From Candidatus Iainarchaeum sp. (lineage in GTDB: Archaea; B1Sed10-29; WALL01): a DNA stretch of 36,339 nt. Below, piece by piece: positions 4,599-36,299 of the stretch. The translations under genes were made by a program, and so were the position numbers. Position 1 is the stretch's first letter, and every line of letters begins with the position of its first letter. The stretch lies in the NCBI GenBank assembly GCA_021162685.1, contig JAGGYF010000036.1, forward strand, positions 1 through 36,339, read 5' to 3'. Below the pieces are notes generated by a model that was given only the letters and a program-made list of their open reading frames with translations, ran no database searches and was not told the origin of the DNA.

Positions 4599-4613
4599 AC
4601 GGAGATGAATAAA

Positions 4614-6565: not shown

Positions 6566-6655
6566 GTACTCACCAGAAAAATAAATGCATATCTCCCTTA
6601 TAAGGATTGAGGCAAACATATATAAATAGCATTGCATTCAATTTTTTTGATTGAA

Positions 6656-6940: not shown

Positions 6941-6993
6941 TTTGAACAGACATAGTAACCAATTTATTTAATGCTGGCTAAAAACAATGCTGT

Positions 6994-7066
6994 GCCTCAG
7001 TGGCTCAGCCGGTAGAGCGCCACCTTGGTAAGGTGGAGGTCGAGGGTTCGAATCCCTCCTGAGGCT
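6994..7066 (+). tRNA. tRNA-Thr(GGT)
   Basis: GCCTCAG/CTGAGGC acceptor, CCACC-TTGGTAA-GGTGG anticodon arm. Confidence 0.97.
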
Positions 7067-7223
7067 TAGGGAGGCCTTGTGCCTCCCGTTTGTGGATTTA
7101 GGTTTTGATGAAACTTCACATTACACAACATCAGAAATACAGATGGTTTTATACCTCTCGTTGTATGATGTGCGTGAAAAGTTTCTTCGGATTCCGCCGA
7201 GGCTTTTCCAAGGGAGATTTGCT

Positions 7224-7613
7224 ATGAAAAAGTTTCTTGACAAAAACAATATAATAGCAGTTGTTGGTGCATCGCCCAACAAAGAGAAGTGGGGCTGGAA
7301 GATATTCACAAAACTACGGGAATCCGGATTTAAGGTATATCCAGTAAACCCAAAACATGAAAAGATTGATAATGCTAGGTGTTACCCAGACCTAAAATCG
7401 TTGCCTAAAAAACCAGATGTTGTTATAACCATTGTCCCACCACATATTACTGAGAAGGTTGTTGAACAGTGCAAAAAACTAGGCATAGAAATGGTGTGGA
7501 TGCAACCTGGCTCTGAATCAGAAGAAGCCATAAAATTTTGTAGAGAGAACGGTATTGAAGTAGTATATAATGCATGCTTTGTTGTTGATGGATTGAAAGA
7601 TATCTTCCAATAG
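7224..7613 (+). CDS. CoA-binding protein (YccU-like)
   Basis: IAVVGAS, VYPVNPK and VWMQPG motifs; start at ATG 7224 after GGGAG. Confidence 0.92.
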   Translation: MKKFLDKNNIIAVVGASPNKEKWGWKIFTKLRESGFKVYPVNPKHEKIDNARCYPDLKSLPKKPDVVITIVPPHITEKVVEQCKKLGIEMVWMQPGSESEEAIKFCRENGIEVVYNACFVVDGLKDIFQ

Positions 7614-7648
7614 AAACCTTTTTAATGCCTTCTTGTCTATTTAGATAT

Positions 7649-8710: not shown

Positions 8711-8742
8711 CAATATCTTTTTTAACTGGTCGGTGTATAATT

Positions 8743-9441
8743 ATGCCTATGGGATTTGTATCACTAATTGGCGTAATAGCAATAGGGGTCCTCCTCCTTG
8801 TGCTGTCTTTTACAGTAGTTATGACCATTGTGGTGTATGCAATATGGAGAACAAGAAACATAATACTGCCAGAGGTCATACTTGCACTTATGAACATATT
8901 TGATTACCCAGTCAAAAGAACATTCTGGTTTTTTAAAATAGACACAGAAGCTGTTGATCTTGTGAAAACTGTGGTTATGAATAAGATCTATGAGAAACAA
9001 TTTTCTAAAATCCCTCCACAGGAAAGATTAATAGTACTGCCGCAATGTCTTAGGCATGTAAATTGCCCAGCAAGGCTTGATCCAAACGAGGGGATTGTAT
9101 GTGTTAAGTGTGGATTATGTGGGATAGCTAACATAAAAGAAGAGGCAGAAGCGCTTGGTGAAAAGGTGGTAATTGTTCCTGGTGGAACATTTGCAGCCAG
9201 GATGATGAAAAAGTTCAGACCAAAAGCAGTTATTGGGGTTGCATGTCCCGCAGAGATAAGAGAAGGAGCAGAGATTGCAATGAAACATGGCATAATCCCC
9301 CAAACGGTTCCATTACTACGTAGTGGATGTGTCAACACCGCAGTAGATTGGGATGAACTAAAAAGGGTTATGAAATTGGGTATTGGCAATGCTCCAGATT
9401 TATCTGACACAATGACAAAAAAGGCCATCATTCAAAACTAG
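8743..9441 (+). CDS. DUF116 family Cys-rich membrane protein
   Basis: LPQCLR..CPA, CVKCGLC, GVAC, GCVNT motifs. Confidence 0.88.
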   Translation: MPMGFVSLIGVIAIGVLLLVLSFTVVMTIVVYAIWRTRNIILPEVILALMNIFDYPVKRTFWFFKIDTEAVDLVKTVVMNKIYEKQFSKIPPQERLIVLPQCLRHVNCPARLDPNEGIVCVKCGLCGIANIKEEAEALGEKVVIVPGGTFAARMMKKFRPKAVIGVACPAEIREGAEIAMKHGIIPQTVPLLRSGCVNTAVDWDELKRVMKLGIGNAPDLSDTMTKKAIIQN

Positions 9442-9458
9442 CATTAGGAGAGAGGAAT

Positions 9459-10307
9459 ATGGACATCATACCAATAATGTTTGATTCTATGGGAGCAAGG
9501 TCTATGGCAACATTTGTTAAATGCAATAAGAATATCTTGATAGATCCTGGTGTAGCACTTGGTCCTTCTAGATATGGTCTGCCTCCACATCCTGTTGAAA
9601 TAAAGGCAATGGAAAGGGGTTATTCCAAAATAAAGAAATTTGCAAGAGATACGGATATTTTTGTTATATCACACTATCACTATGATCACTATGACCCTGA
9701 TGCTAAATTCTACAAAGGAACGGTTTTTGTGAAGCATCCAAAGAAATCAATAAATGCCTCCCAGAAAAGGAGAGCAGAACAGTTTATACCCAAACTGGAA
9801 AAACTTGCAGATGTTAAATTTTCAGACTCAAACGAGTATAAGATTGGCAGCCTAACAATACGTTTTTCTCATCCAATGCCACACGGTCCAGAGCATTCAA
9901 AACTGGGATGGGTTATAGGGACATGTATAGAATACAAAAAAGAGTGCTTTGTTCACACATCAGATGTACAAGGTCCGCTTGTTAAAAAATCAACAGACTG
10001 GATAATATCGCAGAATCCTGATACAATATTTTTGTGCGGAGTACTGTCCTACTTCTTAGGATGGAGATATCCAACAAAGCTACTTGACATTGCAAACAAA
10101 GAGGTTGTAAGAATCATGAAGAACACAGATGTCAAGACAATTGTTATGGACCACCACCTCGTAAGAGATCTCCACTTCAGGAAAAAGATTGCTCCAGTTG
10201 TAGAACATGCTAAAAAGTCTGGGACAAGGATTTGCACTGCTGCAGAATTTGCTGGAAAACAAAACAAATTCCTTGAGGCTGAGAGGAAGTCCTTATGGAA
10301 AAAGTAA
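9459..10307 (+). CDS. Metallo-beta-lactamase-fold hydrolase (UPF0282-like)
   Basis: DSMGARS, SHYHYDH, SDVQGP, DHHLVRD motifs. Confidence 0.88.
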   Translation: MDIIPIMFDSMGARSMATFVKCNKNILIDPGVALGPSRYGLPPHPVEIKAMERGYSKIKKFARDTDIFVISHYHYDHYDPDAKFYKGTVFVKHPKKSINASQKRRAEQFIPKLEKLADVKFSDSNEYKIGSLTIRFSHPMPHGPEHSKLGWVIGTCIEYKKECFVHTSDVQGPLVKKSTDWIISQNPDTIFLCGVLSYFLGWRYPTKLLDIANKEVVRIMKNTDVKTIVMDHHLVRDLHFRKKIAPVVEHAKKSGTRICTAAEFAGKQNKFLEAERKSLWKK

Positions 10308-10792
10308 GATGTTTTATCTCTGGCATGCCAGGATGCGGAAAAACAACGATGATAGAGAGACTTCTTCCATACATAAAAGATTACACTGGATTCATAACAA
10401 AGGATGTAAGAGAGCATGGAAAAAGAGTAGGATTTGACATAGAAGACATAGTTACAAAAGAAAGGCTTCCACTGGCAAGAACAGGCAGGGAAAAACCAAC
10501 TGTTGGAAAATACCACATATTTATTGATAATCTTGAAAGGATTGCTTTGAACGCCATAGAAAGAAAAGCGAACGTTCTAGTAATAGATGAAATTGGAAAA
10601 ATGGAGTTTTGTTCAAAAAGGGTCAAAGAGAAGATATTAGATGCAATAGAGAGCAATAGAAACCTCGTTGCTACCCTTCACAGAAATTATCTGCATTTGG
10701 CAAGAAACAATACACTCATATGGCTTGAGAAGGGGCATTGGAATGAAACATTTGAAAGGCTTAGGAAATTATTAAAAGGAGTTTGTAAATAA
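10295..10792 (+). CDS. NTPase (THEP1/NTPase_1 family)
   Basis: GMPGCGKTT Walker A, IDEIGKME Walker B, RVGFDI. Confidence 0.92.
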   Translation: MEKVRCFISGMPGCGKTTMIERLLPYIKDYTGFITKDVREHGKRVGFDIEDIVTKERLPLARTGREKPTVGKYHIFIDNLERIALNAIERKANVLVIDEIGKMEFCSKRVKEKILDAIESNRNLVATLHRNYLHLARNNTLIWLEKGHWNETFERLRKLLKGVCK

Positions 10793-10805
10793 GATTAGGC
10801 ACTAC

Positions 10806-10941
10806 GCCGGCGTAGCTCAGCCTGGTTAGGCCATGCGTCGTTGATGAAATCGGCGCAGGGACCAAAGCGCCAGACTCATAGGGATGGCATGAGCCCTCCG
10901 GAGATATCTGGAGGTCGCGGGTTCAAAGCCCGTCGCCGGCA
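10806..10941 (+). tRNA. tRNA-Met(CAT), elongator type, with two introns (10830-10865 in the D-arm; 10881-10905 at 37/38)
   Basis: GCCGGCG/CGCCGGC acceptor; removing both inserts restores the GCTC/GAGC D-stem and CCAGA-CTCATAA-TCTGG. Confidence 0.9.
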
Positions 10942-11029
10942 CTTTTTCTTAGTAATTGCAAGAAAATAGTTAAACTTTGATATGATAATGCCATAAAACT
11001 TATATATGTGAAAATAACATAATATTAAT

Positions 11030-11281
11030 ATGAATATAAGTATGCATTTTGAAGGGATTATGGAAGAAATTATTGAAAAACTCCTCAAGCTGGGGATTGC
11101 AAAAACAAAAGCTGAAGCGCTTAGGCTTGGACTGCTTGAGCTGAACGATAAATATCAGTTAGTAGGAGTAGACAAGGAACTTGAAGAGGACTTAATAGAA
11201 ATAAACAGAATTGAAAGGGATATCAAAACAGGCAAGGAAAAGGTTTACTCTGTTAAGAATGTTGCTGAGCTGCTGGCATGA
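11030..11281 (+). CDS. Putative antitoxin (RHH-like N-terminus)
   Basis: 83 aa, KTKAEALRLGL helix, acidic C-terminus, ATGA overlap with a RelE-like gene. Confidence 0.75.
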   Translation: MNISMHFEGIMEEIIEKLLKLGIAKTKAEALRLGLLELNDKYQLVGVDKELEEDLIEINRIERDIKTGKEKVYSVKNVAELLA

Positions 11282-11523
11282 AAATCAAAAGAACGGCTAC
11301 GTTCAAGAAAGATGTCGAGAAACTTGATTCCCAAAGCAAGCAAACTCTCAGAAAAATGATTGAGAAAATCCTTGCCAACCCTGTTCGGTTCAAGCCAATG
11401 AAACATCACTCAAACATTTTCAGAATTAGGTTTAGCAAACTCAGACTTGTTTATAAAGTTGAACAAGACGTTATTACATTCATGTTCGTAAGGAAAAGAA
11501 ACAAAGTTTATAGAAATGTGTGA
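11278..11523 (+). CDS. RelE/ParE family toxin
   Basis: 81 aa, basic; FKKDVEKL...FRIRFSKLRLVYKV pattern. Confidence 0.85.
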   Translation: MKIKRTATFKKDVEKLDSQSKQTLRKMIEKILANPVRFKPMKHHSNIFRIRFSKLRLVYKVEQDVITFMFVRKRNKVYRNV

Positions 11524-11589
11524 ACCGGGGGATCGTCGCCGGCACTCTTTTTGCAAAGGTTTTTAAAGATTGGAGAGATTAATATCAAT

Positions 11590-12618
11590 ATGCCCCGTAT
11601 TACCATGAATGAAGCAAATAATGCCCTGAAATGTCTCAAAGCTCGCAAGGGACATAGGCTTATTATTGTTTTTGATTCTGCAGAAAAACAAGCAATCGCA
11701 AACAAGATACGCAGAGCTGCCAGAAGAAGAGGTATAAGGACAAAATTAATTGACATAAGAGAGCTATTTCAAAAAGGAAACGAAAGATATGTTCTTCAGG
11801 AAATAGAATCGCAACTCTCAAGATTTTTTGGAAGAGCTTCTCACAAGGAAAAGAATGCTATTACATTGATAGGTAATAAAAAACCTTATGCATCTGTAAG
11901 GGGAAAGATAGTGAGGAAGATACTTGAGCAGAATGGATACGTTTTACACATACCAACAGACAACACCAACGTAATAAAAAATCTCCTAGCATTAAATCCA
12001 AATGAATTGGAAAAACGTGGAAATACACTAATTGAGAGACTCAAAAACGCTAGAAGCATAATAATAACTACTGAAGCAGGAACAAATCTTACAATCCCAT
12101 GGCATCCAGAGAAAAGGAGTTGGGTACTAAGTGTTGGAAAAGTCAAGGATTATAGTGTTGGTAAAGGAGGATGGGGCAATCCTGGAGGGGAGGTATTTAC
12201 ATCACCAATACATGAAGGGGTTAGGGGGAAAATTGTTGTGGACGGTTCATTTGGAAATTTTGGATTGGTTAAAGAACCAATAGAAATAGAATTTGATGAA
12301 AGAGGTAGGGCAATCTTAAGTAAGATCAAACATGATGGGATAAGGAAGAAACTATCAAAAGATAAAAATGCTTGTAGACTTGGAGAACTAGGAATAGGAC
12401 TTGTGCCAGGAGAACTTATAGGAGACACCCTATTTGATGAGAAAAAAGAGGGAACAATCCATGTGGCATTTGGCCATGATGAGTCAGAAAGGGGAACAGG
12501 AGGAGAAAATGAAAGTGAAATCCACGAAGATGCGATAATCATGAACCCTACTGTAGTAGTTGTGGATCATAAAGGGAAAAAGCATACAATTATGAATAAA
12601 GGGAAACTCTGTGTATGA
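11590..12618 (+). CDS. Peptidase M29 (aminopeptidase T/AmpS-like) family protein
   Basis: GTNL, NPGGEVF, GELGIG, DEK..GTIHVAFG, IHED motifs; start uncertain. Confidence 0.8.
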   Translation: MPRITMNEANNALKCLKARKGHRLIIVFDSAEKQAIANKIRRAARRRGIRTKLIDIRELFQKGNERYVLQEIESQLSRFFGRASHKEKNAITLIGNKKPYASVRGKIVRKILEQNGYVLHIPTDNTNVIKNLLALNPNELEKRGNTLIERLKNARSIIITTEAGTNLTIPWHPEKRSWVLSVGKVKDYSVGKGGWGNPGGEVFTSPIHEGVRGKIVVDGSFGNFGLVKEPIEIEFDERGRAILSKIKHDGIRKKLSKDKNACRLGELGIGLVPGELIGDTLFDEKKEGTIHVAFGHDESERGTGGENESEIHEDAIIMNPTVVVVDHKGKKHTIMNKGKLCV

Positions 12619-12686
12619 GGGAGTACGGGCTAGATTTTTATACCTCCTCTGCATTATTCTACTGACTAGTTCTGCGGGGTGCGAGG

Positions 12687-13325
12687 ATGGATTTAGCAAA
12701 AAAGGCAGCTGGTGAGAAGGCTGTAGAGTTTATAAAAGATGGCATGATTGTTGGTCTGGGAACAGGTTCAACTGTGTTTTATACTCTAAAAAGAATTGGA
12801 GACCTTGGCTTAGACATCATAGGTATCTGCACAAGCGTTGATACAGAAAACAAATGCAAAGAGTTTGGTATAAAAATTGGGGACATAAATGAATATGTTC
12901 CTGAAATTGCAATAGATGGTGCAGATGAGGTTGACCCAAACAAAAATTTGATAAAGGGTGGGGGAGGAGCATTAACTAGAGAGAAAATTGTTGATTACAG
13001 AGCTAAAGAACTTGTTGTCGTTGTCGGAGAGAATAAACTTGTTGATTATTTAGGCCAAAGATTTTACCTCCCAGTAGAAGTGCTTCCGTTCTGTTGGAAA
13101 AGAGTAAAGAGCGAACTTGAACAAATGTTTGAAAAGGTTGTGAAAAGAGATTTTGTAACAGACAACAAAAATTATATACTAGATTGTTATGGTAGAATAG
13201 AGGGTCCAAAAACATTGGAAAGGGAATTGAATAACATTCCAGGTGTTGTTGAAAATGGACTATTCACAAAGAACACTGGGAGAGTTGTGGTTGGCAAAGA
13301 CAATGGAGAAGTGGAGATAATATGA
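12687..13325 (+). CDS. rpiA: Ribose-5-phosphate isomerase A
   Basis: GLGTGST, DGADEVD, KGGGGALTREK. Confidence 0.97.
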   Translation: MDLAKKAAGEKAVEFIKDGMIVGLGTGSTVFYTLKRIGDLGLDIIGICTSVDTENKCKEFGIKIGDINEYVPEIAIDGADEVDPNKNLIKGGGGALTREKIVDYRAKELVVVVGENKLVDYLGQRFYLPVEVLPFCWKRVKSELEQMFEKVVKRDFVTDNKNYILDCYGRIEGPKTLERELNNIPGVVENGLFTKNTGRVVVGKDNGEVEII

Positions 13326-13957
13326 TTTTGGTTGTGAATTTCAAAACATACGAGCAGAGTATAGGTGAGCGAGGATTGAAGCTTGCTAAGACCTTAGAGG
13401 GGATTACGAAAAATGCTATTGTTTGCCCGCAGATGCCAGACCTAAGGTACATAGCGAATCATGTGGATATCCCGGTGTATGCACAACATATTGATAGTAT
13501 AAAACCAGGAAGCCATACTGGCTGGATACTCCCAGAGGCAATAAAGGAAAGCGGATGTGAGGGCACTCTAATAAATCATTCAGAGCATACCTTGAGCATC
13601 AATGAAATAAAGGAAAGGGTTGAAAGGTGCAGAGATATTGGACTAAAATCAATGGTCTGCGTGCCTGACATAGAAACAGAAGAAAGGGTTGTAGACATGG
13701 AGCCAGATTTTATAGCTATTGAACCACCAGAGCTTATTGGTGGGAATGTATCAGTTGCAACTGCTAAACCTGAGTTAATAGAGAAAGCAGTAGAGGTAAG
13801 CAGAGGTATTCCATTATTATGTGGCGCTGGGATAAACAGCGCAGAAGATATAAAGATAGCAAAAGAACTCGGAGCAATAGGTGTTTTGGTTGCATCAGCA
13901 ATTGTGAAGAGCAAAAATCCGAAAAGTGTAATAGAATCATTTGCTGAATATTTATGA
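13322..13957 (+). CDS. tpiA: Triosephosphate isomerase, archaeal type
   Basis: NFKTY, NHSEH, IEPPELIG, CGAGI. Confidence 0.97.
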   Translation: MILVVNFKTYEQSIGERGLKLAKTLEGITKNAIVCPQMPDLRYIANHVDIPVYAQHIDSIKPGSHTGWILPEAIKESGCEGTLINHSEHTLSINEIKERVERCRDIGLKSMVCVPDIETEERVVDMEPDFIAIEPPELIGGNVSVATAKPELIEKAVEVSRGIPLLCGAGINSAEDIKIAKELGAIGVLVASAIVKSKNPKSVIESFAEYL

Positions 13958-13966
13958 GGTGAAACA

Positions 13967-14869
13967 ATGGATATAGTTGTTGGTCCAAAGGATGGTTTCT
14001 CAGAAAGGATTGCTGAGTATCTAAACCTAACATTTGTTCCACTGCACAGAAGGGTTTTTCCAGACAGAGAGATATGCCCAAGGATTGTTGATGCCATAAA
14101 AGGAAAAAGCGTTCTATTTGTTTCAAGAACAAGTGGTGCAGATGCATTTCATCCAAACAGATATCTAATTGAACTGTATTTAGCATTGACAAACTTGAAA
14201 AGTTTGGGTGCAAAGGAATTAAACGTATTGATGCCATATTTTGTTTACGCAAGACAGGACAAAGTGTTCAGAGAAGGAGAGGTTGTATCAGCAAAAGCAG
14301 TACTTGACCTTCTGAAAAACTTAGGTGTTAAGCGGTTCTATACAGTAACAGCACACATGCAAAGAGAAGAAGGAAAGCTAAGGTTTTATGACGAGATGGA
14401 GTGTTATACAATAGATGGTTTTGAGGAGATTGGAAAATACATAAAAGCAAAATACAATCCAGAAAATCCATTAGTTCTGGGTCCTGATTTGACTGCAAGC
14501 TCTGGGGCAGAAACTGTTGCTAAGGTTTTGGGAATCTCTGAAAGCTCTGCATTGGAAAAGTTTAGGGATAGGGACACAGGTGCAACAGAAACAAAAGGTG
14601 AGCTTCCTGAACTAAATGGCAGAGATGTTATTATTGTTGATGACATTGCTGCAACTGGGGGTACTATGTCCAAAGCAGTTAGCATGTGTAAGGAGAAAGG
14701 AGCAGGGAAGATCATCTGTGCTGTTGTTCATCCTGTTCTAGCTCAGGATTGTTTGAATAGGATAAGAAACACAGGTGCAGAATTCATTGGATGCAATACA
14801 ATAGAATCATGCATATCAAAGGTACATGTTGAGAAAAAGATTGCTGAGTTCATAAAACAGCATTCCTAA
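13967..14869 (+). CDS. prs: Ribose-phosphate pyrophosphokinase
   Basis: [26 protein letters not shown]. Confidence 0.95.
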
Positions 14870-15503
14870 GTTCTTTCAATGCCTCGGCTGGGTCTGGTTT
14901 TTTGAATATTGCTGACCCAGCAACCAAAACATCTGCTCCTTTTTCAACAACCTGGGGAGCAGTTTGCAGATTTATCCCTCCATCTATCTCAATCTCAAAT
15001 GAAAGCTTTTGTTCCTCCCTCATCTCTTTAAGCTGGGTTATCTTTGGTAGAACATTTTTTATGAATGCTTGGCCACCAAACCCTGGATTTACTGTCATCA
15101 AGCAGACCATATCTATATCTGTGAGGACATGCTCTATCATGTAAACGGGTGTTGCAGGATTCAAAACAACTGCTGGTTTTGCTCCCAGTTTTCTTATGAG
15201 CTGCAATGTTCTATGCAGATGTTTACATGCCTCGGTATGTACAGAAATAATATCGCTCCCAGATTCTATAAACTCTGGGATATAAGTATCTGGGTTGTCT
15301 ATCATCAAGTGTGTGTCAAGAGGCAGATCTGTAACATTATCAACTGCTTTTACAACAATTGGGCCCATTGTGATGTTCGGAACAAAATGACCATCCATCA
15401 CATCTATATGGATATAGTCTGCACCAGCCTCCTCAACTGATTTTATTTGTTCTCCAAGTCGCGAGAAGTCTGCAGATAAGATAGAAGGAGCAATCTTTAC
15501 CAT
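14850..15503 (-). CDS. rpe: Ribulose-phosphate 3-epimerase
   Basis: [35 protein letters not shown]. Confidence 0.97.
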
Positions 15504-15570
15504 GAGACCACCGTACCTATTTATGTAGATAAAACTTTTTAAATGATGATTGACAAAAATACTCTCTATT

Positions 15571-15667
15571 GCCTCGGTAGCTTAGCGGTATAGCGCCGGT
15601 CTTGTACAGCCCAACAATATGGGCTAAAGATAACCGGAGGTCGAGGGTTCGAATCCCTCCCGAGGCT
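15571..15667 (+). tRNA. tRNA-Thr(TGT) with a 25-nt intron at 37/38 (15607-15631)
   Basis: GCCTCGG/CCGAGGC acceptor, CCGGT-CTTGTA|A-ACCGG, intron hairpin AGCCCA/TGGGCT. Confidence 0.93.
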
Positions 15668-15813
15668 TCTGGCATTCAAGTGCGGAGCACATGCTTGAGA
15701 CAGTGCATTTCTCTTGGAAATACACTCCCCTTTCGTTGATTGCCTGTACTGGAAGTAAAATTTATTTGCCACACATTTATAAACTCTTTTTTGTATAAAA
15801 TCATCGAAGCAGT

Positions 15814-16252
15814 ATGAAAATTAACTGAAAGCCTACTAAGAAAAGAGTCATTGTAGTGATTTTATTATTCGTCTTTCTTTTCGGTGTTCCGAAAGTTATG
15901 GAATATTTTTTAAAGTCAGAACCCTCACCTTGCCATATCGCATCCGATGTCATGATACAAGAACAGATAAAATCTTGTGAAGCCACGCCAGAGTTTTCAA
16001 GCCTATCACCTAAAACGTGAGATATACTCTACACTACGTAGTATCTTCATGACCATAGCTGCACCATTATACGTCTTACCATCAATCGTAATAGCATATT
16101 CTATTCTCCTGTTTCCAGCAGTGATTTATGGGGATGTTCCTTCCATCATAGGCTTCTGGGCTGTGAGTATAACTTCATTTACACTATATTTTTATCTATT
16201 AGTGGTACTAGGCGAGTATGCATACGCAGTAATACGCCAGAAAAAGAGTTGA
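15814..16252 (+). pseudogene. Probable disrupted small membrane-protein gene
   Basis: ATG 15814 reads MKIN*KPTKKRVIVVILLFVFLFG to a TGA at 16018; the hydrophobic C-terminal part continues in another frame (ORF 15977-16252). Confidence 0.5.
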
Positions 16253-16277
16253 AGCCAAAAACCGTTTCAATTGAACA

Positions 16278-16622
16278 TTACCTTTTCTTGTACTTGAACC
16301 TTTTTTCGTAATCCTTGTGCGAGAGCCATTCAATGACAACACTGACAATGAGCACTTCGTTTGCTTTTATGGTGTAAAGGAGGCGCCAAGCGTTTGGCAA
16401 ATCGTACTTCCACAAGTTGCTGATTTTGTATTTCTTGATGTACTCTTTTGGGATGAGCTTGCTGGGGATTTGTATTCCACAGGTAGGATTTGCTTTCAAG
16501 TCGTCCATTGCCCTGTCTATGAAATGATACAATTGCCTGTCTTCGAACTTCCCTTTCTTGAGCTTGTCAAAAGCCTTCTTCAACTTTTCTTCAATAAATG
16601 CTACGTGGATTTCTCTCGTCAT
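16278..16622 (-). CDS. RelE-superfamily-like toxin
   Basis: NLWKYDLPNAWRLLYTI...EWLSHKDYEKRF; start 16622 overlaps the upstream stop (ATGA). Confidence 0.75.
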   Translation of the reverse strand: MTREIHVAFIEEKLKKAFDKLKKGKFEDRQLYHFIDRAMDDLKANPTCGIQIPSKLIPKEYIKKYKISNLWKYDLPNAWRLLYTIKANEVLIVSVVIEWLSHKDYEKRFKYKKR

Positions 16623-16894
16623 TTCACAATCAATCCTTTGCTCAGGAGCTTTCTCACCCCTTCTGGGTCCCAGATCCACACAATCTTTTTCTCCCTGTCG
16701 AAAATGATTTTGTTAGAATATTCCAGGTAGTCGATTATCGTGCAGTATGTCTGGTACATTGTCTTGCGGGGCAGCTTTTCCCACACCTGCTTTTTTGAGT
16801 ATTTCCCACTGTGCTTTTGTATGAATTCCTCTACCATTAAAATTGTGTCCAGGCGCGGATAGCGCAGGACATTTTCCGGCTTGAAAACTGTCAT
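16619..16894 (-). CDS. Putative winged-helix antitoxin/regulator
   Basis: YPRLDTILMVEEFI...LPRKTMYQT...YLEYSNKI; translationally coupled to the toxin; alternative start 16906. Confidence 0.7.
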   Translation of the reverse strand: MTVFKPENVLRYPRLDTILMVEEFIQKHSGKYSKKQVWEKLPRKTMYQTYCTIIDYLEYSNKIIFDREKKIVWIWDPEGVRKLLSKGLIVK

Positions 16895-16914
16895 TTGAAA
16901 CCGCATACACTAGT

Positions 16915-16930
16915 TATATCAATTGATATA
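16915..16930. promoter_or_regulatory. Perfect 16-bp palindrome, candidate TA operator
   Basis: TATATCAATTGATATA immediately upstream of the antitoxin start, beside a TTTAAATA TATA-like box. Confidence 0.6.
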
Positions 16931-17142
16931 TTTAAATGTTTTGGTGCTCCAAGTACAGTACTCTTGCTCCTCCCGAGGCTCTAATTCTACGGTGCTAGAG
17001 CCTGCACCAAACTATTTATAGAACCTCAAGCAGAAGCCCAGGAGCATGGATAGAATAACAACTGGCAAAGGAAGCTTTTGGCACTCAGTTCCGCGGAAAT
17101 GACCTGCGTGTGTCCTATACTGGCCGAAAACCTTAAATAACA

Positions 17143-17185
17143 GTGTTACACTAATATTAACAAATTATTAATTTCGGTGTAGCAC
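17143..17185. promoter_or_regulatory. Inverted repeat, candidate AbiEi operator
   Basis: GTGTTACAC...TTAA...TTAA...GTGTAGCAC ends at the base before the ATG. Confidence 0.6.
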
Positions 17186-17683
17186 ATGAAGGGCCTTTCT
17201 GGAAAAGAATTAGAACTTGTTTCATTTCTCGAGCTGAAGGAAAAGTATTTTTTTACGAGGGATGATGTGAGAAGTTTCTTCAAGAATGTGAACGAGATGA
17301 ACGTGTACCTGCACAGGTTGAAGAAAAAAGGGAGAATCATGAAGCTGAACAGGACCAAGTATTTTCTCGTTCCCGTGAAGGCGTTTAAAGGCTTCTGGGC
17401 AGAGCACCCCTTTGTTATCGCGGATGAGATATTCAACGGAAAAAACTATTTCATCAGGGGATTGGCCGCAGCGCACTACTGGGGCTTGGTGGAACAAATC
17501 CCGACGCAAATAGAAGTGGCTTGCACGAACAAGCAGGGAAAGAGAAAGCTCTTTGGTTTCACGATTATTTTCAAGAGAGTGAGGCCAGCAGGCATGAAGG
17601 GTTTCGTGAAGAGAAAGATAGGGAAGCATCCTTTCAGGATAATGTCAAAAAAGAGGGTTGAGCAATGGCTGAAATCACGTTGA
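17186..17683 (+). CDS. Type IV TA antitoxin, AbiEi family
   Basis: wHTH (LHRLKKKGRIMKL), AAAHYWGLVEQIP motif, upstream of AbiEii. Confidence 0.85.
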   Translation: MKGLSGKELELVSFLELKEKYFFTRDDVRSFFKNVNEMNVYLHRLKKKGRIMKLNRTKYFLVPVKAFKGFWAEHPFVIADEIFNGKNYFIRGLAAAHYWGLVEQIPTQIEVACTNKQGKRKLFGFTIIFKRVRPAGMKGFVKRKIGKHPFRIMSKKRVEQWLKSR

Positions 17684-18426
17684 TAAGCAAGGCAGAACTA
17701 AAGCACATTGCTGGAAAAACGGGCTTCAATCTAATCTATCTGGAAAAAGACTATTTCCTAACCATACTACTGTACTTGCTTAAAGACATTGGGAGCATCT
17801 GCTTCAAAGGAGGTACTGCCTTGAACAAGATTTTCCTTGACCACACGCGCCTCAGCGAGGACCTTGATTTTGCATGTTCTGGCAACATAAAAAAAGTAAG
17901 AAAAGAAGTGCTTGAGGTTCTAAAGAAAAACAAGGATATTTTTCCAGATTATAAGTTTGAAAACCAGACAAAGGATTTTTTCCGTCTCAGAATCTTTTAC
18001 AAAAGCTATTTTTCTAAAACAAGTTATGTTGTCCTTGACGTGAACAGCAAAGCATCCATCCACAAGAAACCAGAAGCGAAAACAATACCTCATTTTTATG
18101 ATGGAATTCCTCCATTCAAAATAAAGACATTAGCACTTGAAGAACTGGCAGCAGAAAAAACAAGGGCACTGATAACTCGAAACCAACCTCGAGATTATTA
18201 TGATGTTTACATGATTCTACGAAATAAACATAAAATAAACAAAACCCTCCTAAGAAAAAAGCTGTCCGAAGCAGGCGAACAATTTGACGTAAATAGGATA
18301 TTCAAGAACGCTAGAAAGATTTACTCGAAGTGGGATGAAGAGATAAGCCAGCTAACAAACAAGCCAGTTGCTTATGCCTCTGTAATCAAGGCACTCCAAA
18401 AAGAGTTCGGCTACAAGAGCAAGTAA
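17665..18426 (+). CDS. AbiEii/AbiGii nucleotidyltransferase toxin
   Basis: EKDY, FKGGTAL, RLSEDLDF, AEK..AL..R..PRDYYD motifs. Confidence 0.93.
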   Translation: MAEITLISKAELKHIAGKTGFNLIYLEKDYFLTILLYLLKDIGSICFKGGTALNKIFLDHTRLSEDLDFACSGNIKKVRKEVLEVLKKNKDIFPDYKFENQTKDFFRLRIFYKSYFSKTSYVVLDVNSKASIHKKPEAKTIPHFYDGIPPFKIKTLALEELAAEKTRALITRNQPRDYYDVYMILRNKHKINKTLLRKKLSEAGEQFDVNRIFKNARKIYSKWDEEISQLTNKPVAYASVIKALQKEFGYKSK

Positions 18427-18508
18427 CCACCTCATTTCTGCAGAAATGACTTGTGTCTGTCGTTTTTCAGCCACAGCTCAAAGCCGTATGGCTTGTTTCT
18501 CCCAAGAC

Positions 18509-18928
18509 CTATTCTATAATTTTTTCGATTTCTCTGATGAATCCTTCGGCAAATTCTAATGCTTCCTCGGCCTCTATCTTTGTTGCAGAATATCTCACAT
18601 CGTAAAGCACGCCATGCCTTGATGTCCTGTATCTGTCCAGCAGAGCAATTAGCTCACTGGGAATTTCGGGATGCTTTGCTTCTAGGTATCTAATCACGCA
18701 CTCATGACTTTTTTCGCGGTAACCATCTCTAAAAAGAACCGCACGCGCGGCGTTGAACGCGGCAGAATAAGACATAACCAAAGCAGAATCAAAAGAGCTA
18801 TTTTCAAAATTACTTTTCGCTTGTGCCAATAGGTTATCTGCCTTTTCCATGCTTTCCTTCACAAGCGTTTCAGCATAAGGAGACCTTTGGATGTACCCTT
18901 TCCTAAAGCACTCTTCCAGATTAAGCAA
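18509..18928 (-). CDS. HEPN domain protein
   Basis: SYSAAFNAARAVL, KSHECVI, RHGVLY; TTG start after GGGGTGAGG. Confidence 0.88.
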   Translation of the reverse strand: MLNLEECFRKGYIQRSPYAETLVKESMEKADNLLAQAKSNFENSSFDSALVMSYSAAFNAARAVLFRDGYREKSHECVIRYLEAKHPEIPSELIALLDRYRTSRHGVLYDVRYSATKIEAEEALEFAEGFIREIEKIIE

Positions 18929-19469
18929 TTGCCTCACCCCACAAAACAAAAGAGTTATATAAAGAGTAATAAAAGGGGTTTCCTCGCTTGCACAAGTCCT
19001 CTACTTGCTCCTTGCCCAAAGCAGTTAACTGCACGTTCACCCCAAGTTTCTCGGATATCTCCTTCTGGGCTTTTGCAACCCTCACAGCTTCAGGCCTCTT
19101 CTTGACCTTAACCCACAGATCTAGGTCGCTCCTTTCATGATTGGTTCCAGTAAGCCAGCTACCATAAACTCCGATACCTATAGCTTCGGGGATATGCTTT
19201 TTTATTGACTCAATTACCTTACGCTCTAGCAAGCTGTTTATGTTAAAATATATTTTGAGAAGTCGCACATTGGGGTTGGTTAACGAAATGCTATTTCTTT
19301 CAATAACTCTTTGTTTTCTTAAAAGCTTGAGAAATTGAGAAACAAATCCCGGACTAACGTTGTTCTCTTTTGCTATTGCCCTTACTCCAAGCAGTGTTCC
19401 TGGTTCTGATACTAAGTACTTCAACACTCTTACTTTCTTAGGTGAGGAGAATATTGACTCTGTTTTCAT
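18921..19469 (-). CDS. HTH-fused minimal nucleotidyltransferase (MNT antitoxin)
   Basis: N-terminal HTH, YGSWLTG....SDLDL motif. Confidence 0.9.
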   Translation of the reverse strand: MKTESIFSSPKKVRVLKYLVSEPGTLLGVRAIAKENNVSPGFVSQFLKLLRKQRVIERNSISLTNPNVRLLKIYFNINSLLERKVIESIKKHIPEAIGIGVYGSWLTGTNHERSDLDLWVKVKKRPEAVRVAKAQKEISEKLGVNVQLTALGKEQVEDLCKRGNPFYYSLYNSFVLWGEAIA

Positions 19470-19473
19470 ATTG

Positions 19474-19509
19474 TAAACGTATCGTTTGTGATATATAAAC
19501 ATATCGTTT
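19474..19509. promoter_or_regulatory. Tandem palindromic boxes, candidate MNT-HEPN operator
   Basis: TAAACGTATCGTTT (19474-19487) and TAAACATATCGTTT (19496-19509), 22 bp apart, overlapping a TATA-like sequence. Confidence 0.6.
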
Positions 19510-19588
19510 TCTTATTATAAACACATACTAACAGTGTCTCTTTGCAGGCTCTAGAGCCGTATGGGCAGTTATCATAGGTGTTCCAGCC

Positions 19589-20332
19589 TCAAAAAAACAG
19601 CATCTTCACTCCTGAAGCAATAACGAACAGGGCAAACAATCGTTTCACCCATAGGTCTCCTTTCTTTAATGCAACATGAGCGCCGATATAGCCACCAATT
19701 GCCATGCCCACAAGTAAGATTATCCCCACAGCATAGTTGATGATTCCATTCATAGCAAAGATCACCAGTGAAGCTAAGGAGAGGACAAACCAAGGTATGA
19801 TGTTTGTCGCAAGCACTTCAATCATTGTAAACCCAAGGAAATAGGTAAGTGTGTAAAAGATTAATGGTCCTGTTCCTTGACCAAAAAATCCACCGAATAT
19901 CATAATCAGGAAATAGATGAACAAACCTAATACTGACTTTGATTTGGTTGTTTTATTTCGTTTGATACCTATGTTTTGCTTCAGAAATGCAAATGGTAAA
20001 AGGGCAAGTAGAAAAAATCCTACTGCCCTTTGCAAAAGATTGGAATCTATGTTTAACAAAATGTTCGCACCGATTAAAGAACCAATCAAGCTGATTATTG
20101 AGAGGATAGCGACATATTCCCAAATGATTTTCTTGGCTTTATGGAACTTGAACAATGCAGTAGATGTTTGGCCAATTGTTCCAAATCTGTCTGTTGCTAT
20201 GGCAACCTGTGGAGGAAAACCAAGAAACATAAGTGCAGGTATAGAAATCAGACCACCTGCTCCAAGCACTGAATCAAAAAAGCCTGCGGTCATGCCTATA
20301 AACAGTGTGGACAGCAATACTACAAATTCCAT
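19589..20332 (-). CDS. TSUP (TauE/SafE) family transporter
   Basis: AGFFDSVLGAGGLISIP, GGFFGQGTG, GGYIGA. Confidence 0.92.
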   Translation of the reverse strand: MEFVVLLSTLFIGMTAGFFDSVLGAGGLISIPALMFLGFPPQVAIATDRFGTIGQTSTALFKFHKAKKIIWEYVAILSIISLIGSLIGANILLNIDSNLLQRAVGFFLLALLPFAFLKQNIGIKRNKTTKSKSVLGLFIYFLIMIFGGFFGQGTGPLIFYTLTYFLGFTMIEVLATNIIPWFVLSLASLVIFAMNGIINYAVGIILLVGMAIGGYIGAHVALKKGDLWVKRLFALFVIASGVKMLFF

Positions 20333-20559
20333 TGGATAAATTTCTCTGCTGGGTTTTTTAATATTTTATGCTGTAATTACGGGTATGGTCTCGCTACTCC
20401 AGTTATTCAGCATAATTGCTTGTATAATTGCTTTTGTTGCGAGTATAATGGTGTTATATCTAACCAGAAGGAATAGATAGTTTAATATACCCCAACATTC
20501 AAAAATCCACTACAAAACACTAATTCTGTGTTTTGTTAAAAATAAAGAGAGTGAATAAA

Positions 20560-20988
20560 ATGCAAACAGATATAGCTGACCTCAAACCAAGAGGTCGTGA
20601 ATTAGATGTAACCTTTAAGGTTATTGAGAAAACAGATGAGAGAGAAGTAACATCAAAGAGTGATGGAAGCAAGCATAAAGTAGCAGAAGTAAGAGTTGGA
20701 GATGCAACAGGAACTGTGCTTATGACACTATGGGATGATGCAATTGATTTAGTGGAAGAAGGCAAAACGTACGAGCTGAAAAATGGCTACACATCTCTGT
20801 TCAACAACACGATACGATTGAACGTTGGTAGGAATGGAGAGCTAGTTGAGAAGGAAGAGGAGATAGAACCAAATACAGAGAATGATGTTTCCCAGAAGGT
20901 GTACGAAAGAGAGTTCAGACCAAGAAGATTTGAAGGTGGGAGCAGAAGAAGGTTTGATAGAGGACGAGAAAGGAGAAAACGCTGGTAG
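20560..20988 (+). CDS. Single-OB-fold single-stranded DNA-binding protein (SSB/RPA-like)
   Basis: VGDATGTVLMTLWD...LKNGYT...LNVGRNG OB-fold. Confidence 0.9.
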   Translation: MQTDIADLKPRGRELDVTFKVIEKTDEREVTSKSDGSKHKVAEVRVGDATGTVLMTLWDDAIDLVEEGKTYELKNGYTSLFNNTIRLNVGRNGELVEKEEEIEPNTENDVSQKVYEREFRPRRFEGGSRRRFDRGRERRKRW

Positions 20989-21005
20989 ATTGCCAGCACC
21001 TATTT

Positions 21006-21191
21006 CTATTTTTTCATAAGCTTAGTGTAAGCTCTGTTCAGTAATTCTTCATGTGCTTTCTCGTCAGCGATTGTGAGTTTCAGCAGTTCAAGAATTTCTG
21101 GGTCTTGTATACGCTTCACATATGACATATAGAAATCTATTAGGTGTTTTTCTCTCTCCATATCTGATTTTAGTATTTGTTCAATATCCAT
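21006..21191 (-). CDS. Small ferritin/rubrerythrin-like protein (two-helix half)
   Basis: E...FY...DEKAH (ExxH) pattern, GGGGTG SD. Confidence 0.7.
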   Translation of the reverse strand: MDIEQILKSDMEREKHLIDFYMSYVKRIQDPEILELLKLTIADEKAHEELLNRAYTKLMKK

Positions 21192-21243
21192 ATATGCACC
21201 CCACCTACACTGTTTTTATAGGAAAGGTTCCCATAAAAAACCT

Positions 21244-22098
21244 ATGCTTTGGCTTTGGGTAACACTATCTGCTGTTTTTATAAATGCCTTGGGGAAGATA
21301 ATACATAGATACATACTGAAAGATGAGGATGCAATAGGTTATGCATTTATCTGGAGTTTTCTGTCTGCTGTGTTCTACATTCCTTTGCTGGCTATAGAGC
21401 CATTAAGGTTGCCAACAACACAATTAGAATGGATGGGGTTTTTCCTAGCAGTAGCATTGTGGCTTATCATAAACATTGTTGGGTTCTATTCCATAAAACA
21501 TACAGAGATAACACTAAGAACACCACTAAATACAATCAAGATTGTCTTGATACTATTGCTTGGAGCAGTATTCCTGCATGAGGAGATTACCACATGGAAG
21601 GTTTTTGGAACACTGCTTGTCTTTGCTGGTGCATTTGTGATAACATGGAAGAAGGGGGCACTTGGTCATCTAACAGAGTATGGTGTTAAACTTACGTTAT
21701 TAACTTCATTGCTAACAGCGTGTGTTGCAATCGTTGATAAGTTCAATATGAATAATGGTATAAGCCCTGCGTTTTATGGTATGATGATGTATCTTGTTCC
21801 CTCGCTCTTCCTCGGAATCATGACGCGCTCTAGGATAGCAGGATTCAAGAAGTTGTGGGAGAATAAGGCGCCATTTGTCATACTCGCTGCATTATGTTAT
21901 ACTGGTATGTATTACCTGCATATGGTTGCATACACACTTGGGGATGTCACAAACGTATATCCTGTGCTACAATTAACCACACTTGTTACTGTTATACTAG
22001 GTTATGTGCTTCTGAAAGAAAAGACAGAGATAAAACAAAGAATTGTTGGAGCCATATTGATGATTATGGGTGCAGTCCTCATTGCTCTTGGCGCCTAG
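21244..22098 (+). CDS. EamA/DMT family transporter
   Basis: Two-repeat multi-TM protein, FLHEEIT and LLKEK motifs. Confidence 0.9.
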   Translation: MLWLWVTLSAVFINALGKIIHRYILKDEDAIGYAFIWSFLSAVFYIPLLAIEPLRLPTTQLEWMGFFLAVALWLIINIVGFYSIKHTEITLRTPLNTIKIVLILLLGAVFLHEEITTWKVFGTLLVFAGAFVITWKKGALGHLTEYGVKLTLLTSLLTACVAIVDKFNMNNGISPAFYGMMMYLVPSLFLGIMTRSRIAGFKKLWENKAPFVILAALCYTGMYYLHMVAYTLGDVTNVYPVLQLTTLVTVILGYVLLKEKTEIKQRIVGAILMIMGAVLIALGA

Positions 22099-22435
22099 CA
22101 AGAAGATATGAAACAAGTGCAGAATAATGCGGCAAAAGGTTTTCAACTGTTGGTTTGGCATCACCAATCTTCTCTTCTATCTCACTGAATCGCTTCTCGT
22201 GGTGATTATTCATAAAAATATCAGCGGACTTATTTTTTGGAAGATTGGCACTCTCTATTGCCTTGAACAATGCTAAAGCATGTGCTGCCTCCCTTGAATC
22301 CTTACTATAAGTAAATGTTCGTGAGAATCTCCTTCCCCATGCATCTTCATATGAGACATCTAATCTTATTTCATTCCCTCTCTCTTTCAAACGGAACCTT
22401 GGTCCAAGGTAAATCTTTCTATCAACAGCTGGCAT
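22079..22435 (-). CDS. Hypothetical protein
   Basis: 118-aa ATG ORF filling the gap, no recognised motif. Confidence 0.6.
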   Translation of the reverse strand: MPAVDRKIYLGPRFRLKERGNEIRLDVSYEDAWGRRFSRTFTYSKDSREAAHALALFKAIESANLPKNKSADIFMNNHHEKRFSEIEEKIGDAKPTVENLLPHYSALVSYLLARRQEQ

Positions 22436-22450
22436 AACTATATTTTATAC

Positions 22451-22590
22451 AATGTCATTAAAAATATGTTATGGGATCGTGGGGTGGCTGTGCAGCGTCC
22501 CTAGGGGGCTTCGCCCCCTGGCTACCCTGGGAAGCCCACCCCTTCCCTCATAATGTCATCAAAAATATGTTATGGGATCGTGGGGTAGCT
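22451..22590. mobile_element. 62-nt hairpin element (22490-22551) flanked by 39-bp direct repeats that include tRNA-Pro nt 1-17
   Basis: 22451-22489 vs 22552-22590 differ at 2 positions; the insert is homologous to 4646-4706. Confidence 0.85.
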
Positions 22591-22646
22591 TGGTATCCTC
22601 GCGGCTTCGGGAGTCGCAGACGGGAGTTCAAATCTCCCCGATCCCA
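22574..22646 (+). tRNA. tRNA-Pro(CGG)
   Basis: GGGATCG/CGATCCC acceptor, GCGGC-TTCGGGA-GTCGC anticodon arm. Confidence 0.96.
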
Positions 22647-22776
22647 CTTCAGCTCCTTTCTTTTTAGAAAAAAGAAAGTAGTTGGCAGTCAAAGAAAAAC
22701 TAATCTTCTCTTCCTTTGAGAAGCATATTACTGTGGTGCAGCTTTCAGACGCCTTTTGGATCTCCCGATCCCACCA
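22632..22776. mobile_element. ~110-nt hairpin insert between the tRNA-Pro 3' end and a duplicated 3' end carrying CCA
   Basis: ATCTCCCCGATCCCAC (22632-22647) vs ATCTCCCGATCCCAC-CA (22760-22776). Confidence 0.75.
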
Positions 22777-22812
22777 ATGTTTTTAAATGAGTACAGACAA
22801 AACAAATTACGC

Positions 22813-22903
22813 CCCCGCTTAGCTCAGTCTGGTAGAGCGGTCGGCTGTAGATGGTAGCTCTGCCGATACCGACAGGTTGCCGGTTCAAATCCGGCAGCGG
22901 GGA
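22813..22903 (+). tRNA. tRNA-Tyr(GTA) with a 17-nt intron (22851-22867)
   Basis: CCCCGCT/AGCGGGG acceptor (C1-G72), GTCGG-CTGTAG|A-CCGAC. Confidence 0.93.
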
Positions 22904-22904
22904 T

Positions 22905-23034
22905 GCCCCGGTGGTGTAGTTCGGTTTATCATCTGGGACTGTCGTAGCCCTCAAGGGAAGAGGGTAGAGGGAGAAACCGTAGGTGTCTCCTCTGCAGATA
23001 TCCCAGGACTCGGGTTCAAATCCCGGCCGGGGCG
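22905..23034 (+). tRNA. tRNA-Asp(GTC) with a 55-nt intron (22945-22999)
   Basis: GCCCCGG/CCGGGGC acceptor, TGGGA-CTGTCG|A-TCCCA, BHB helix CTGT/GCAG. Confidence 0.92.
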
Positions 23035-23142
23035 CTTTTTTGTGGGGAACCGAGAGGTGCTCATTATAATATCAAATATAAATGCGTAAGCACTTGGAGG
23101 GGGATAGGATGAAAGAAAAGATAATTGCCCCCTTTATAAACC

Positions 23143-36188: not shown

Positions 36189-36299
36189 CAGCCTTTTTCC
36201 GCTTCAGGCGGAAAAAGCCTGGGGAAGTATAACCATGTTCGCCCTGCCGGCGAACAAGGACGCCTTCGGCGCATGCTTAAAAGATCCCACTATTAGAAA
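36189..36299. mobile_element. Second copy of the three-hairpin element found at 5130-5242
   Basis: 83/84-nt core differs by one indel and one substitution; tail ends in CACTATTAGAAA. Confidence 0.85.

Follow-up and report, generated by a model that had tools for sequence, protein, structure and literature searches.

A gene-less two-hairpin element inserted before tRNA-Pro(CGG) in an Iainarchaeum-type archaeon, with a locus-specific duplication of its target

A 62-nucleotide (nt) insert without genes stands before the tRNA-Pro(CGG) gene of a Candidatus Iainarchaeum genome, bracketed by a 39-nt duplication that includes the start of the gene itself. The insert occupies positions 22490-22551 of contig JAGGYF010000036.1 (assembly GCA_021162685.1). 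The window analyzed here is the whole of this contig (C12), 36,339 nt. The source genome (G000) comprises 1.11 Mb in 45 contigs, is 98% complete, and has a G+C content of 39.6%. Its tRNA genes are archaeal and rich in introns. The insert is read here as one copy of a non-coding, modular family of two-hairpin mobile DNA that would spread by host-driven template switching without a transposase of its own. The probability of this reading is put at roughly one half.

The insert and its duplication

The two copies of the duplication lie at 22451-22489 and 22552-22590 on the forward strand. A repeat search of the window found them identical at 37 of 39 positions (95%), the mismatches being T/C at 22459/22560 and G/A at 22485/22586. 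At this identity, with the copies 101 nt apart, a chance repeat is excluded. An earlier note on this DNA had described an insertion in tRNA-Pro(CGG) with a 39-bp duplication at 22451-22590, and the repeat search bears this out. Each copy is composed of a leader of 21-22 nt followed by positions 1-17 of the tRNA; the right copy runs from -21 to 17 relative to the tRNA. The left copy is a dead tRNA fragment that ends in the D-loop. The right copy runs on into the intact tRNA-Pro(CGG) gene at 22574-22647 on the forward strand, which is called by ARAGORN and scores 52.9 bits with the Rfam tRNA model.

A TATA-like box, TTTTATAC, is read at 22443-22450 on the forward strand, and the duplication begins directly after it. 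From the usual archaeal spacing, this box is probably the promoter. It now stands upstream of the partial tRNA copy, and the intact gene is about 100 nt further from it.

The 62 nt between the repeat copies consist of GTG, CAGCGTCCCTA, the hairpin GGGGGC-TTC-GCCCCC, and TGGCTACCCTGGGAAGCCCACCCCTTCCCTCAT. The GTG (22490-22492, forward strand) is a 3-nt filler between the duplication and the head of the element, and the same filler is found at 4646-4648. The element core follows at 22493-22545 on the forward strand and is defined by a covariance model, R1 (74.3 bits, E 3.6e-18), by its fold, and by covariation. It begins with the head CAGCGTCC, followed by hairpin 1 at 22503-22519 (stem GGGGGC/GCCCCC, loop TTC), hairpin 2 at 22520-22536 (GGCTACCC-T-GGGAAGCC), and a C-rich box, CACCCC. 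The pyrimidine-rich tail ends in CCTCAT (22546-22551, forward strand), and the point at which the tail ends varies among the copies of the family. At the Rfam gathering score, the window contains tRNAs only. Rfam at relaxed E-values gave nothing relevant for 4550-5300 and four related loci.

The minus strand of the hairpin reads GGGGGCGAAGCCCCC, and the GCGAAGC loop that the earlier note had pointed out is present there. GCGAAGC is a stable mini-hairpin of single-stranded DNA. The TTC/GAA loop of the Pro(CGG) copy occurs in no other row of a 38-row alignment of the family, and a loop peculiar to one copy is incidental.

Both hairpins covary

Across the family, hairpin 1 keeps the G-run and C-run of its base, and its apex is hypervariable. 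Hairpin 2 has the form GGNNACCC-T-GGGNNNCC. A MAFFT alignment of 12 copies has 97.8% of its cells paired and two-sided changes in 6 of 16 pairs. Its covariation score of 0.258 compares with 0.066 for shuffled alignments, and none of 500 shuffles reached 0.258. When the pairing was slid along the same alignment as a control, it dropped to 36-65%. Among 33 distinct copies aligned with the model, two-sided changes affect 8 of 14 pairs, and the share of paired cells is 95.9%, in an alignment that leans towards the model. The suggestion that the structure is under selection, made with covariation proposed as its test, is upheld: the pairing of both hairpins is selected. The covariation fits RNA, single-stranded DNA, or a cruciform alike.

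Two possible roles of the paired sequence were considered and rejected. The hairpin-1 apex was compared with the anticodon arm of the host tRNA as a possible mimic. Matches of 7 nt occur at both Pro loci without specificity, and the cognate tRNA ranks 5, 2, 15, 0, and 28 among 41 tRNAs. Base-pairing between the target end and the element was also discarded as a general guide. In 21 cases, the cognate target paired no better than non-cognate ones, and only Pro-type D-arms pair (7-11 nt).

A family of elements at tRNA genes

A sister copy is found in the window before tRNA-Pro(TGG), at 4618-4738 on the forward strand (R1 73.5 bits). It consists of a duplication at 4618-4645 and 4711-4738, the GTG filler at 4646-4648, and an element at 4649-4710. 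The duplication measures 28 nt, or up to 32 nt if CTTC is counted. The right arm is common to both Pro loci (4680-4711 equals 22515-22546, 32/32), and 4628-4663 shares 89% identity with 22472-22507. The hairpin-1 apex at Pro(TGG) is longer and unrelated to that at Pro(CGG), with pairing kept in both. The earlier description of two copies with identical arms around a central hairpin that differs and yet pairs agrees with the identical right arm, the common head, and the fold.

Model R1 was built from 12 full copies (alignment A1); it demands the head, so that copies without a head escape it. The order is sampled by 13 genomes, and all relatives of the source genome are incomplete metagenome-assembled genomes (MAGs), 61-96% complete. 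R1 gives 10 matches in the source genome and matches in 8 of the 13 genomes. The source genome aside, matches occur in 5/5 genomes of family f1 and 2/4 of f3, with 0/2 in f2 and 0/1 in f4. The head motif is found six times in the source genome versus zero times for a reversed-pattern control.

Beyond the order, the head pattern gave nothing convincing among 61 genomes, where single matches with one mismatch in three genomes lacked the hairpins and arms. A conserved 19-mer of the element has exact matches in 13 stretches of genome contigs. Seven are archaeal records from MAGs or single-amplified genomes, six of which are titled Iainarchaeum or Micrarchaeota, and the other six are bacterial. By estimate, about four chance matches are expected, and the bacterial matches are at about chance level. 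The 19-mer has no exact match in a viral contig collection. As far as searched, the family is confined to one order of DPANN (Iainarchaeum-type) archaea.

Most copies of the family sit at tRNA genes. Further targets are His, Val, Leu, Arg, Gln, and Cys tRNA genes, a small-RNA gene, and the 5' end of a protein gene. Elements occur in either orientation, upstream or downstream of the tRNA, and range from ~50 to ~190 nt through extra hairpin modules and nested inserts. Clear flanking direct repeats are found in 22 of the 35 copies examined; these measure 15-59 nt and are different at each locus. The left repeat ends 0-5 nt before the head in 22/22 clear cases, and a complete gene is kept on one side in every one of them.

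The earlier note had proposed GTGGGGTAGCT in the Pro D-arm as the shared target. This is too narrow, as duplications at many different tRNAs have their inner ends in a D- or T-loop. Three Pro loci, and one further tRNA start recognized by eye, have the inner boundary in the D-loop, 17-20 nt from the tRNA 5' end. Five loci have it in the T-loop region, 16-20 nt away from the tRNA 3' end, and in one more the distance is 27 nt. Outer boundaries are found between -21 and -1 on the 5' side of the tRNA and between -1 and +18 on its 3' side. An outer boundary at the tRNA 3' end was rejected as a rule: several are at or within 2 nt of it, but the number is small and others lie at +14 to +18.

The content of two duplications bears on how they were made. 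At locus L034, a 59-nt duplication takes in the TATA box. At 32030-32175 of contig C36 of the source genome, a copy lies in the 5' end of a protein gene, and its 41-nt duplication is composed of the ribosome-binding site, the ATG, and five codons. Because the duplications contain such sequences, they were made at the DNA level. The duplication at C36 also creates a short upstream reading frame that runs into the element.

At some loci, a unit made up of the element and its duplication is repeated in tandem, with two or three identical units in a row: L038, L048, L057 (G004), and L046 (G012). Either unequal recombination between duplicated flanks or repeated insertion at the same site could produce such arrays. 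Moreover, the same junction goes with the same type of flank. GTAGCT-GTG is found at both Pro loci of the source genome, and GGGATT at three His loci. The junction GGATTCGAA (TTCGAA) accompanies the head variant GAGCG in two genomes, and TTTGGTCA accompanies GAGCG at three loci.

Gain of the Pro insertions

Seven genomes of three families have the same gene upstream of tRNA-Pro(TGG). The spacer between this gene and the tRNA is 133 nt in the source genome, 17-52 nt in five others, and 140 nt in G006, which has no element there. Subtracting the 93-nt unit from the spacer of the source genome leaves 40 nt. The neighborhood of tRNA-Pro(CGG) and tRNA-Tyr is kept in G001 and G009, both without the element. 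In the order, 3 of the 21 tRNA-Pro genes inspected have an element, and the third Pro gene of the source genome has none. Because the syntenic tRNA-Pro loci of relatives have no insert, the insert was gained in the lineage of the source genome. Recombination between repeat copies is a possible route of loss and would make presence and absence reversible. Another Pro case is a locus type known from G007 and related contigs (the G007-type locus), from which the source genome differs in duplication length, junction, and apex, all of which fits separate gains.

Proposed spread by template switching

The element entered the D-loop region of tRNA-Pro(CGG) and duplicated 39 bp of target, a stretch that begins right after the TATA box and ends at tRNA position 17. 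Under the template-switching reading, a 3' DNA end that stalls or breaks in a tRNA gene, typically in its D- or T-loop part, would switch to a copy of the element, aided by the homology of the tRNA flanks. This end would then copy the element from its fixed head (CAGCG) tailward for a variable distance. It would return to its own template 11-59 nt behind the point of departure, often at a few bases of microhomology. The target that is copied again would become the long, variable, locus-specific duplication. At Pro(CGG), the outcome is a dead 5' fragment, the element, and an intact gene that would be transcribed through a ~100-nt leader and trimmed by RNase P. In a compact genome, only insertions whose duplication rebuilds a complete gene would survive, and modules in tRNA introns would persist through splicing.

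Five copies were tabulated for their ends. They have a tail sequence in common that breaks off at differing points, and the first bases of some duplications resemble the tail (~10 nt at C36, AATG at Pro(CGG)). The variable tail ends and the tail-like starts of the duplications fit template switching and are suggestive of it.

Several points weigh against template switching. Entry is always exactly at the head; switching at microhomology should scatter it, and a fixed end fits the end of a template or an enzyme better, though the search model, which requires the head, makes the fixed head partly a search bias. The Pro copies of the source genome share junction and arms and have unrelated hairpin-1 apexes, which simple copying leaves unexplained. 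Several non-tRNA targets have no flank homology to any known donor, and 13 of the 35 copies examined have no flank duplication or only a weak one. Across genera and two families the arms hardly vary, and the flanking tRNAs are only 80-85% identical. Such invariant arms suggest recognition by a protein or another selected function. Population data also bear on the question. Parts of the window are present in five DNA runs and in no listed RNA run, and contigs of four of the DNA runs, aligned on 4300-23100, cover it ~5x. They contain no filled and empty allele side by side, and no joint skips either Pro insert. These contigs end at the repeats, one of them at 22485, and hence are uninformative on empty alleles. 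A tRNA-Pro(CGG) 31-mer, used to seek strain variants, gave no match in metagenome contigs. Finally, the absence of an enzyme rests on Pfam models and, outside the source genome, on genomes that are 61-96% complete, and a virus, a plasmid, or a host cell could be the source of one.

A possible non-autonomous element moved in trans

The strongest alternative, possible but doubtful, is a non-autonomous element that is moved in trans by an unrecognized enzyme or by an enzyme of a virus, plasmid, or host cell. Such an enzyme would nick in the tRNA loops and again 11-59 bp away. Ligation in the manner of the insertion sequences IS1634/IS1549 would follow, or RNA copying primed at the target in the manner of short interspersed nuclear elements (SINEs). 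This would account for one fixed end, 0-5 filler bases from the duplication, next to another end that is variable. Variable duplication length, insertion in both orientations, and the strong conservation of the arms across genera are also in its favor. The inner boundaries cluster 16-20 nt from the tRNA ends while the duplications span 17-48 nt, which looks like target choice. Long variable direct repeats of 8-514 bp are documented for IS1549/IS1634 and lack a mechanistic model (PMC2266710).

The enzyme searches speak against it. Ten Pfam families of mobile-element enzymes were searched in the source genome, and the reverse transcriptase family RVT_1 was searched across all 13 genomes of the order. 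RVT_1 had no match in 13/13 genomes, with a positive control in three genomes. In the source genome, Y1_Tnp (PF01797), Cas1, IS110, Mutator, rve, and OrfB_IS605 had no matches. Phage_integrase (PF00589) likewise had no match in the source genome, with the control positive in 14/14 genomes; serine recombinases were not searched. Of the nine families other than RVT_1, only one yielded a gene in the source genome, a DDE_Tnp_1 gene (C37; 367 aa). Among the 13 genomes, its relatives are found only in the source genome and as a fragment in G002. Its flanks are unrelated to the element, and the gene is absent from most element-bearing genomes. As it is not co-distributed with the element, this DDE transposase is an unlikely mobilizer; a parent insertion sequence may exist beyond the sampled genomes. 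A TnpB-like piece in the source genome was also set aside, as it falls below the cut-off and has three stop codons.

Other features also count against it. The sequence reads without terminal inverted repeats and without an A-rich tail, and the conserved 19-mer finds no exact match in viral contigs. In addition, a 111-nt block present at two Pro loci of a related organism (see below) shows that spread is possible without such an enzyme.

The lack of a Phage_integrase match in a 98%-complete genome is an observation in its own right, as this family would include the XerA-type recombinase. A genome without a Phage_integrase match is unusual for an archaeon, if the absence holds.

A possible structure kept for the host

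It is improbable that the element is kept as an RNA or DNA structure useful to the host, such as a guide for pre-tRNA processing, a terminator, or a means to sequester fragments, with the duplications as by-products. The covariation of both hairpins, the arms kept across two families, and the position of copies within tRNA transcription units would all be expected of such a structure. At the Pro loci, the partial D-arm can also pair with the element (GGGTAGC/GCTACCC), over 11 nt at the G007-type locus. However, this complementarity is limited to Pro-type D-arms, and elsewhere a cognate target scores no better than a non-cognate one. Copies stand in both orientations, upstream and downstream of tRNAs and also at the start of a protein gene. 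Moreover, the syntenic tRNA-Pro genes of relatives and the third Pro gene of the source genome do without the element, and no Rfam family matches it.

Independence of the two Pro insertions

The Pro(CGG) insert may instead have been copied from Pro(TGG) within the source genome by ectopic gene conversion through shared tRNA sequence (GTGGGGTAGCT...), which is quite unlikely. The junction (...GTAGCT), the GTG filler, and the arms agree between the two Pro loci, with an identical head and a right arm identical at 32/32 positions.

A related lineage also offers a clear case of conversion. In a G007-type organism (contigs L116/L117), a 111-nt block is identical at the Pro(TGG) and the Pro(CGG) locus and lies between unrelated flanks. 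It opens with a 20-nt piece of partial tRNA, continues through the element and CAGCGGAAT, and closes with the initial 21 nt of the tRNA. In L117, the Pro(CGG) locus has the leader bases of the other locus before its intact gene. Ectopic gene conversion would leave such a block, with tRNA homology at its borders. Because an identical block stands at two loci, homology between tRNA paralogues can spread the unit without a transposase. A further contig, L036 (G007:C28), has the flanks of the Pro(TGG) locus and the tRNA body of the Pro(CGG) locus, and has arisen either by recombination or as a chimera of the assembly across the 111-nt block.

In the source genome, conversion would be expected to leave a foreign leader and acceptor strand, as in L117. 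Instead, the 21-nt non-tRNA leader of Pro(CGG) itself is repeated on both sides of the insert, in agreement with the earlier claim that this locus is not a segmental copy of the first. Because the duplicated leader is Pro(CGG)'s own, a segmental copy or plain conversion from Pro(TGG) does not explain the locus, nor does an attachment scar left by an integrase. The hairpin-1 apex is also unrelated between the two Pro loci. The identity of the arms is not special to the Pro pair, since the copy at a tRNA-Val flank has nearly the same arms, with one mismatch. The claim of an independent insertion thus stands in part: the locus-specific flank supports it, but the GTG filler common to both Pro loci and the conversion-like 111-nt block found elsewhere count against it.

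Least probable by far is an attL/attR scar of a virus or plasmid that was integrated by a tyrosine integrase and later deleted: a partial and a complete tRNA copy that bracket foreign DNA are the classic footprint of an integrase (PMC9897764, PMC3293823). However, a core borne by the element would be constant, while the repeats here are locus-specific and contain coding, promoter, or leader sequence. Moreover, it is the gene's 5' part that is repeated at Pro(CGG), the insert measures 62 nt, Phage_integrase has no match in the source genome, and tandem arrays of unit plus duplication occur.

A link to tRNA introns

Sequence related to the element is also found in tRNA introns. The 55-nt intron of tRNA-Asp(GTC), at 22945-22999 on the minus strand of the window, is a reversed module homologous to hairpin 1 and the CTACCCT of the element. 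It shares with the Val-flank copy the same hairpin apex and a 15-nt exact match followed by CTACCCT. The intron module recurs at 95-100% identity over 41-44 nt in tRNA-Pro introns (G011; G012), in a tRNA-Trp intron (G010), and at two non-tRNA loci. It occurs in both orientations, and these Pro and Trp introns belong to another family of the order than the source genome. BLAST joins the intron module to flank-type copies at E-values of 7e-4 and 1.5e-4, and the tRNA-His and tRNA-Ser introns of the source genome hold apexes that are found in other flank copies. No flank duplication was seen at the intron copies.

Two further loci were noted. In G012 (C20 191-405; L107/L110), a tRNA-Pro(CGG) gene has a 139-nt intron with two tandem copies of the intron-type module. 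On the minus strand of contig C15 of the source genome (~41000-41190), a tRNA-Leu(GAG)-like gene is recognized by eye, where ARAGORN makes no call. It has ~28 extra nt in the D-loop region, which may be a non-canonical intron at a site matching that of the Pro elements.

A broader proposal would join these observations. The elements would be mobile DNA without a transposase that hijacks stalled replication or repair at tRNA genes and would at the same time be a vehicle of archaeal tRNA intron gain. A module that lands in the anticodon loop would become a spliceable intron, and one that lands in the D- or T-loop would survive through the flank duplication that rebuilds the gene. This joint proposal is tentative and, as a whole, rather unlikely.

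Other repeats in the window

The window contains one more copy of the family, its third, on the minus strand at 4918-5131 behind tRNA-Leu(TAA), with the element at 4953-5096 and its head GAGCGTCC starting at 5096. Its 35-nt duplication (4918-4952 and 5097-5131, 34/35 identical) follows directly after the tRNA 3' end at 4917. A nested insert of ~58 nt splits hairpin 2, and model R1 missed this copy at E<=0.01. A similar nested insert is found at the same spot of hairpin 2 in C3 of the source genome, in G002 (L030), and in G001 (L040).

Several tRNA-Leu genes or fragments are followed by a conserved trailer, TGACCAAATTACATATGGTCGTTCGTAG, with a hairpin (loop CTTTATG/CATAAAG) and then CACTATTAG. 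The trailer is found at 4918-4968 and 5097-5131 of the window. In the rest of the source genome it is found in C20 (~2463-2700), C15 (~41190-41300), and C3 (~4870-4930). This trailer is a second family of repeats or else a small RNA that is co-transcribed. Another hairpin-rich repeat of ~83 nt, CAGCCTTTTTCCGCTTCAGGCGGAAAAAGCCTGGGG..., occurs twice in the window, at 5130-5213 and 36189-36271, with 90-100% identity.

Comparison with known systems

tRNA genes are the targets of larger integrative elements in archaea. Two reports describe PYG1 of Pyrococcus yayanosii, a tRNA-targeting integrative element with 44-bp direct repeats (PMC9897764), and a 1.8-kb element at the tRNA-Thr of Caldiarchaeum (PMC3293823). 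In contrast to these, the insert at Pro(CGG) is 62 nt and without genes, the repeats of its family are locus-specific and reach into leader, promoter, or coding sequence, the affected region is the gene's 5' part with the D-loop, and there is no Phage_integrase match in the source genome. Long target duplications that differ from copy to copy are shared with IS1634/IS1549, for which the mechanism is unexplained (PMC2266710). Those insertion sequences are 1.5-2 kb with a DDE transposase and inverted ends, whereas the elements described here are 55-190 nt without inverted ends.

SINEs are small, structured, non-autonomous elements with one precise end plus a few extra bases, another end that is variable, variable duplications, and insertion in both orientations. 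The present family resembles them in its one precise head, variable tail end, variable duplications, and both orientations. It differs in its prokaryotic host, the lack of an A-rich tail, and the absence of an RVT_1 match in 13/13 genomes.

Repetitive extragenic palindromes (REPs) leave their target unduplicated and depend on a Y1 transposase, the REP-associated tyrosine transposase (RAYT). MITEs, or miniature inverted-repeat transposable elements, carry inverted repeats at their termini and make short duplications whose fixed length is set by the parent transposase. Like REPs, the hairpins formed by REP doublets (REPINs), and MITEs, the family consists of short GC-rich hairpin repeats scattered in the non-coding DNA of compact genomes. 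Unlike REPs, it has long duplications, and the source genome has no Y1_Tnp match. Unlike in MITEs, the C/T-rich tail is not the reverse complement of the head CAGCGTCC, the ends of the insert are linked by no inverted-repeat pair, and the duplications of the 22 clear cases (15-59 nt) are neither short nor fixed.

Transposed tRNA introns have reportedly been found in Thermoproteales by Fujishima et al. in 2010. As with those introns, the same short structured sequence is present in unrelated tRNA genes, here in Asp, Pro, and Trp introns. Unlike them, the Pro(CGG) copy lies outside the mature tRNA, is not spliced, and has a complete tRNA downstream and a long target duplication. Fork stalling and template switching (FoSTeS) and microhomology-mediated break-induced replication (MMBIR) leave a copied stretch at the joint of a short tandem duplication, with filler and microhomology, and require no dedicated enzyme. 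Those events are sporadic, whereas here one conserved donor sequence recurs and is always entered at the same base. In open-access text, no prokaryotic class was found that combines a fixed hairpin head, no inverted ends, gene-rebuilding duplications of 11-59 bp, a preference for tRNA loops, and no recognizable enzyme in the genome.

Significance

Small non-coding mobile elements as such are already known. In practical terms, the units described here leave dead pieces of tRNA genes and interrupt assemblies: the repeats are where contigs of the public runs end, and one MAG contig (L036) resembles a mixture of two loci. The sequence link between the element and the intron module bears on the origin of tRNA introns and gives concrete donor and recipient sequences. 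A 2026 preprint on Asgard tRNA introns leaves open how introns arrive (10.64898/2026.10.13.758758). If the spread of the family is driven by the host, it would show how selfish DNA persists in 1-Mb genomes with almost no transposases.

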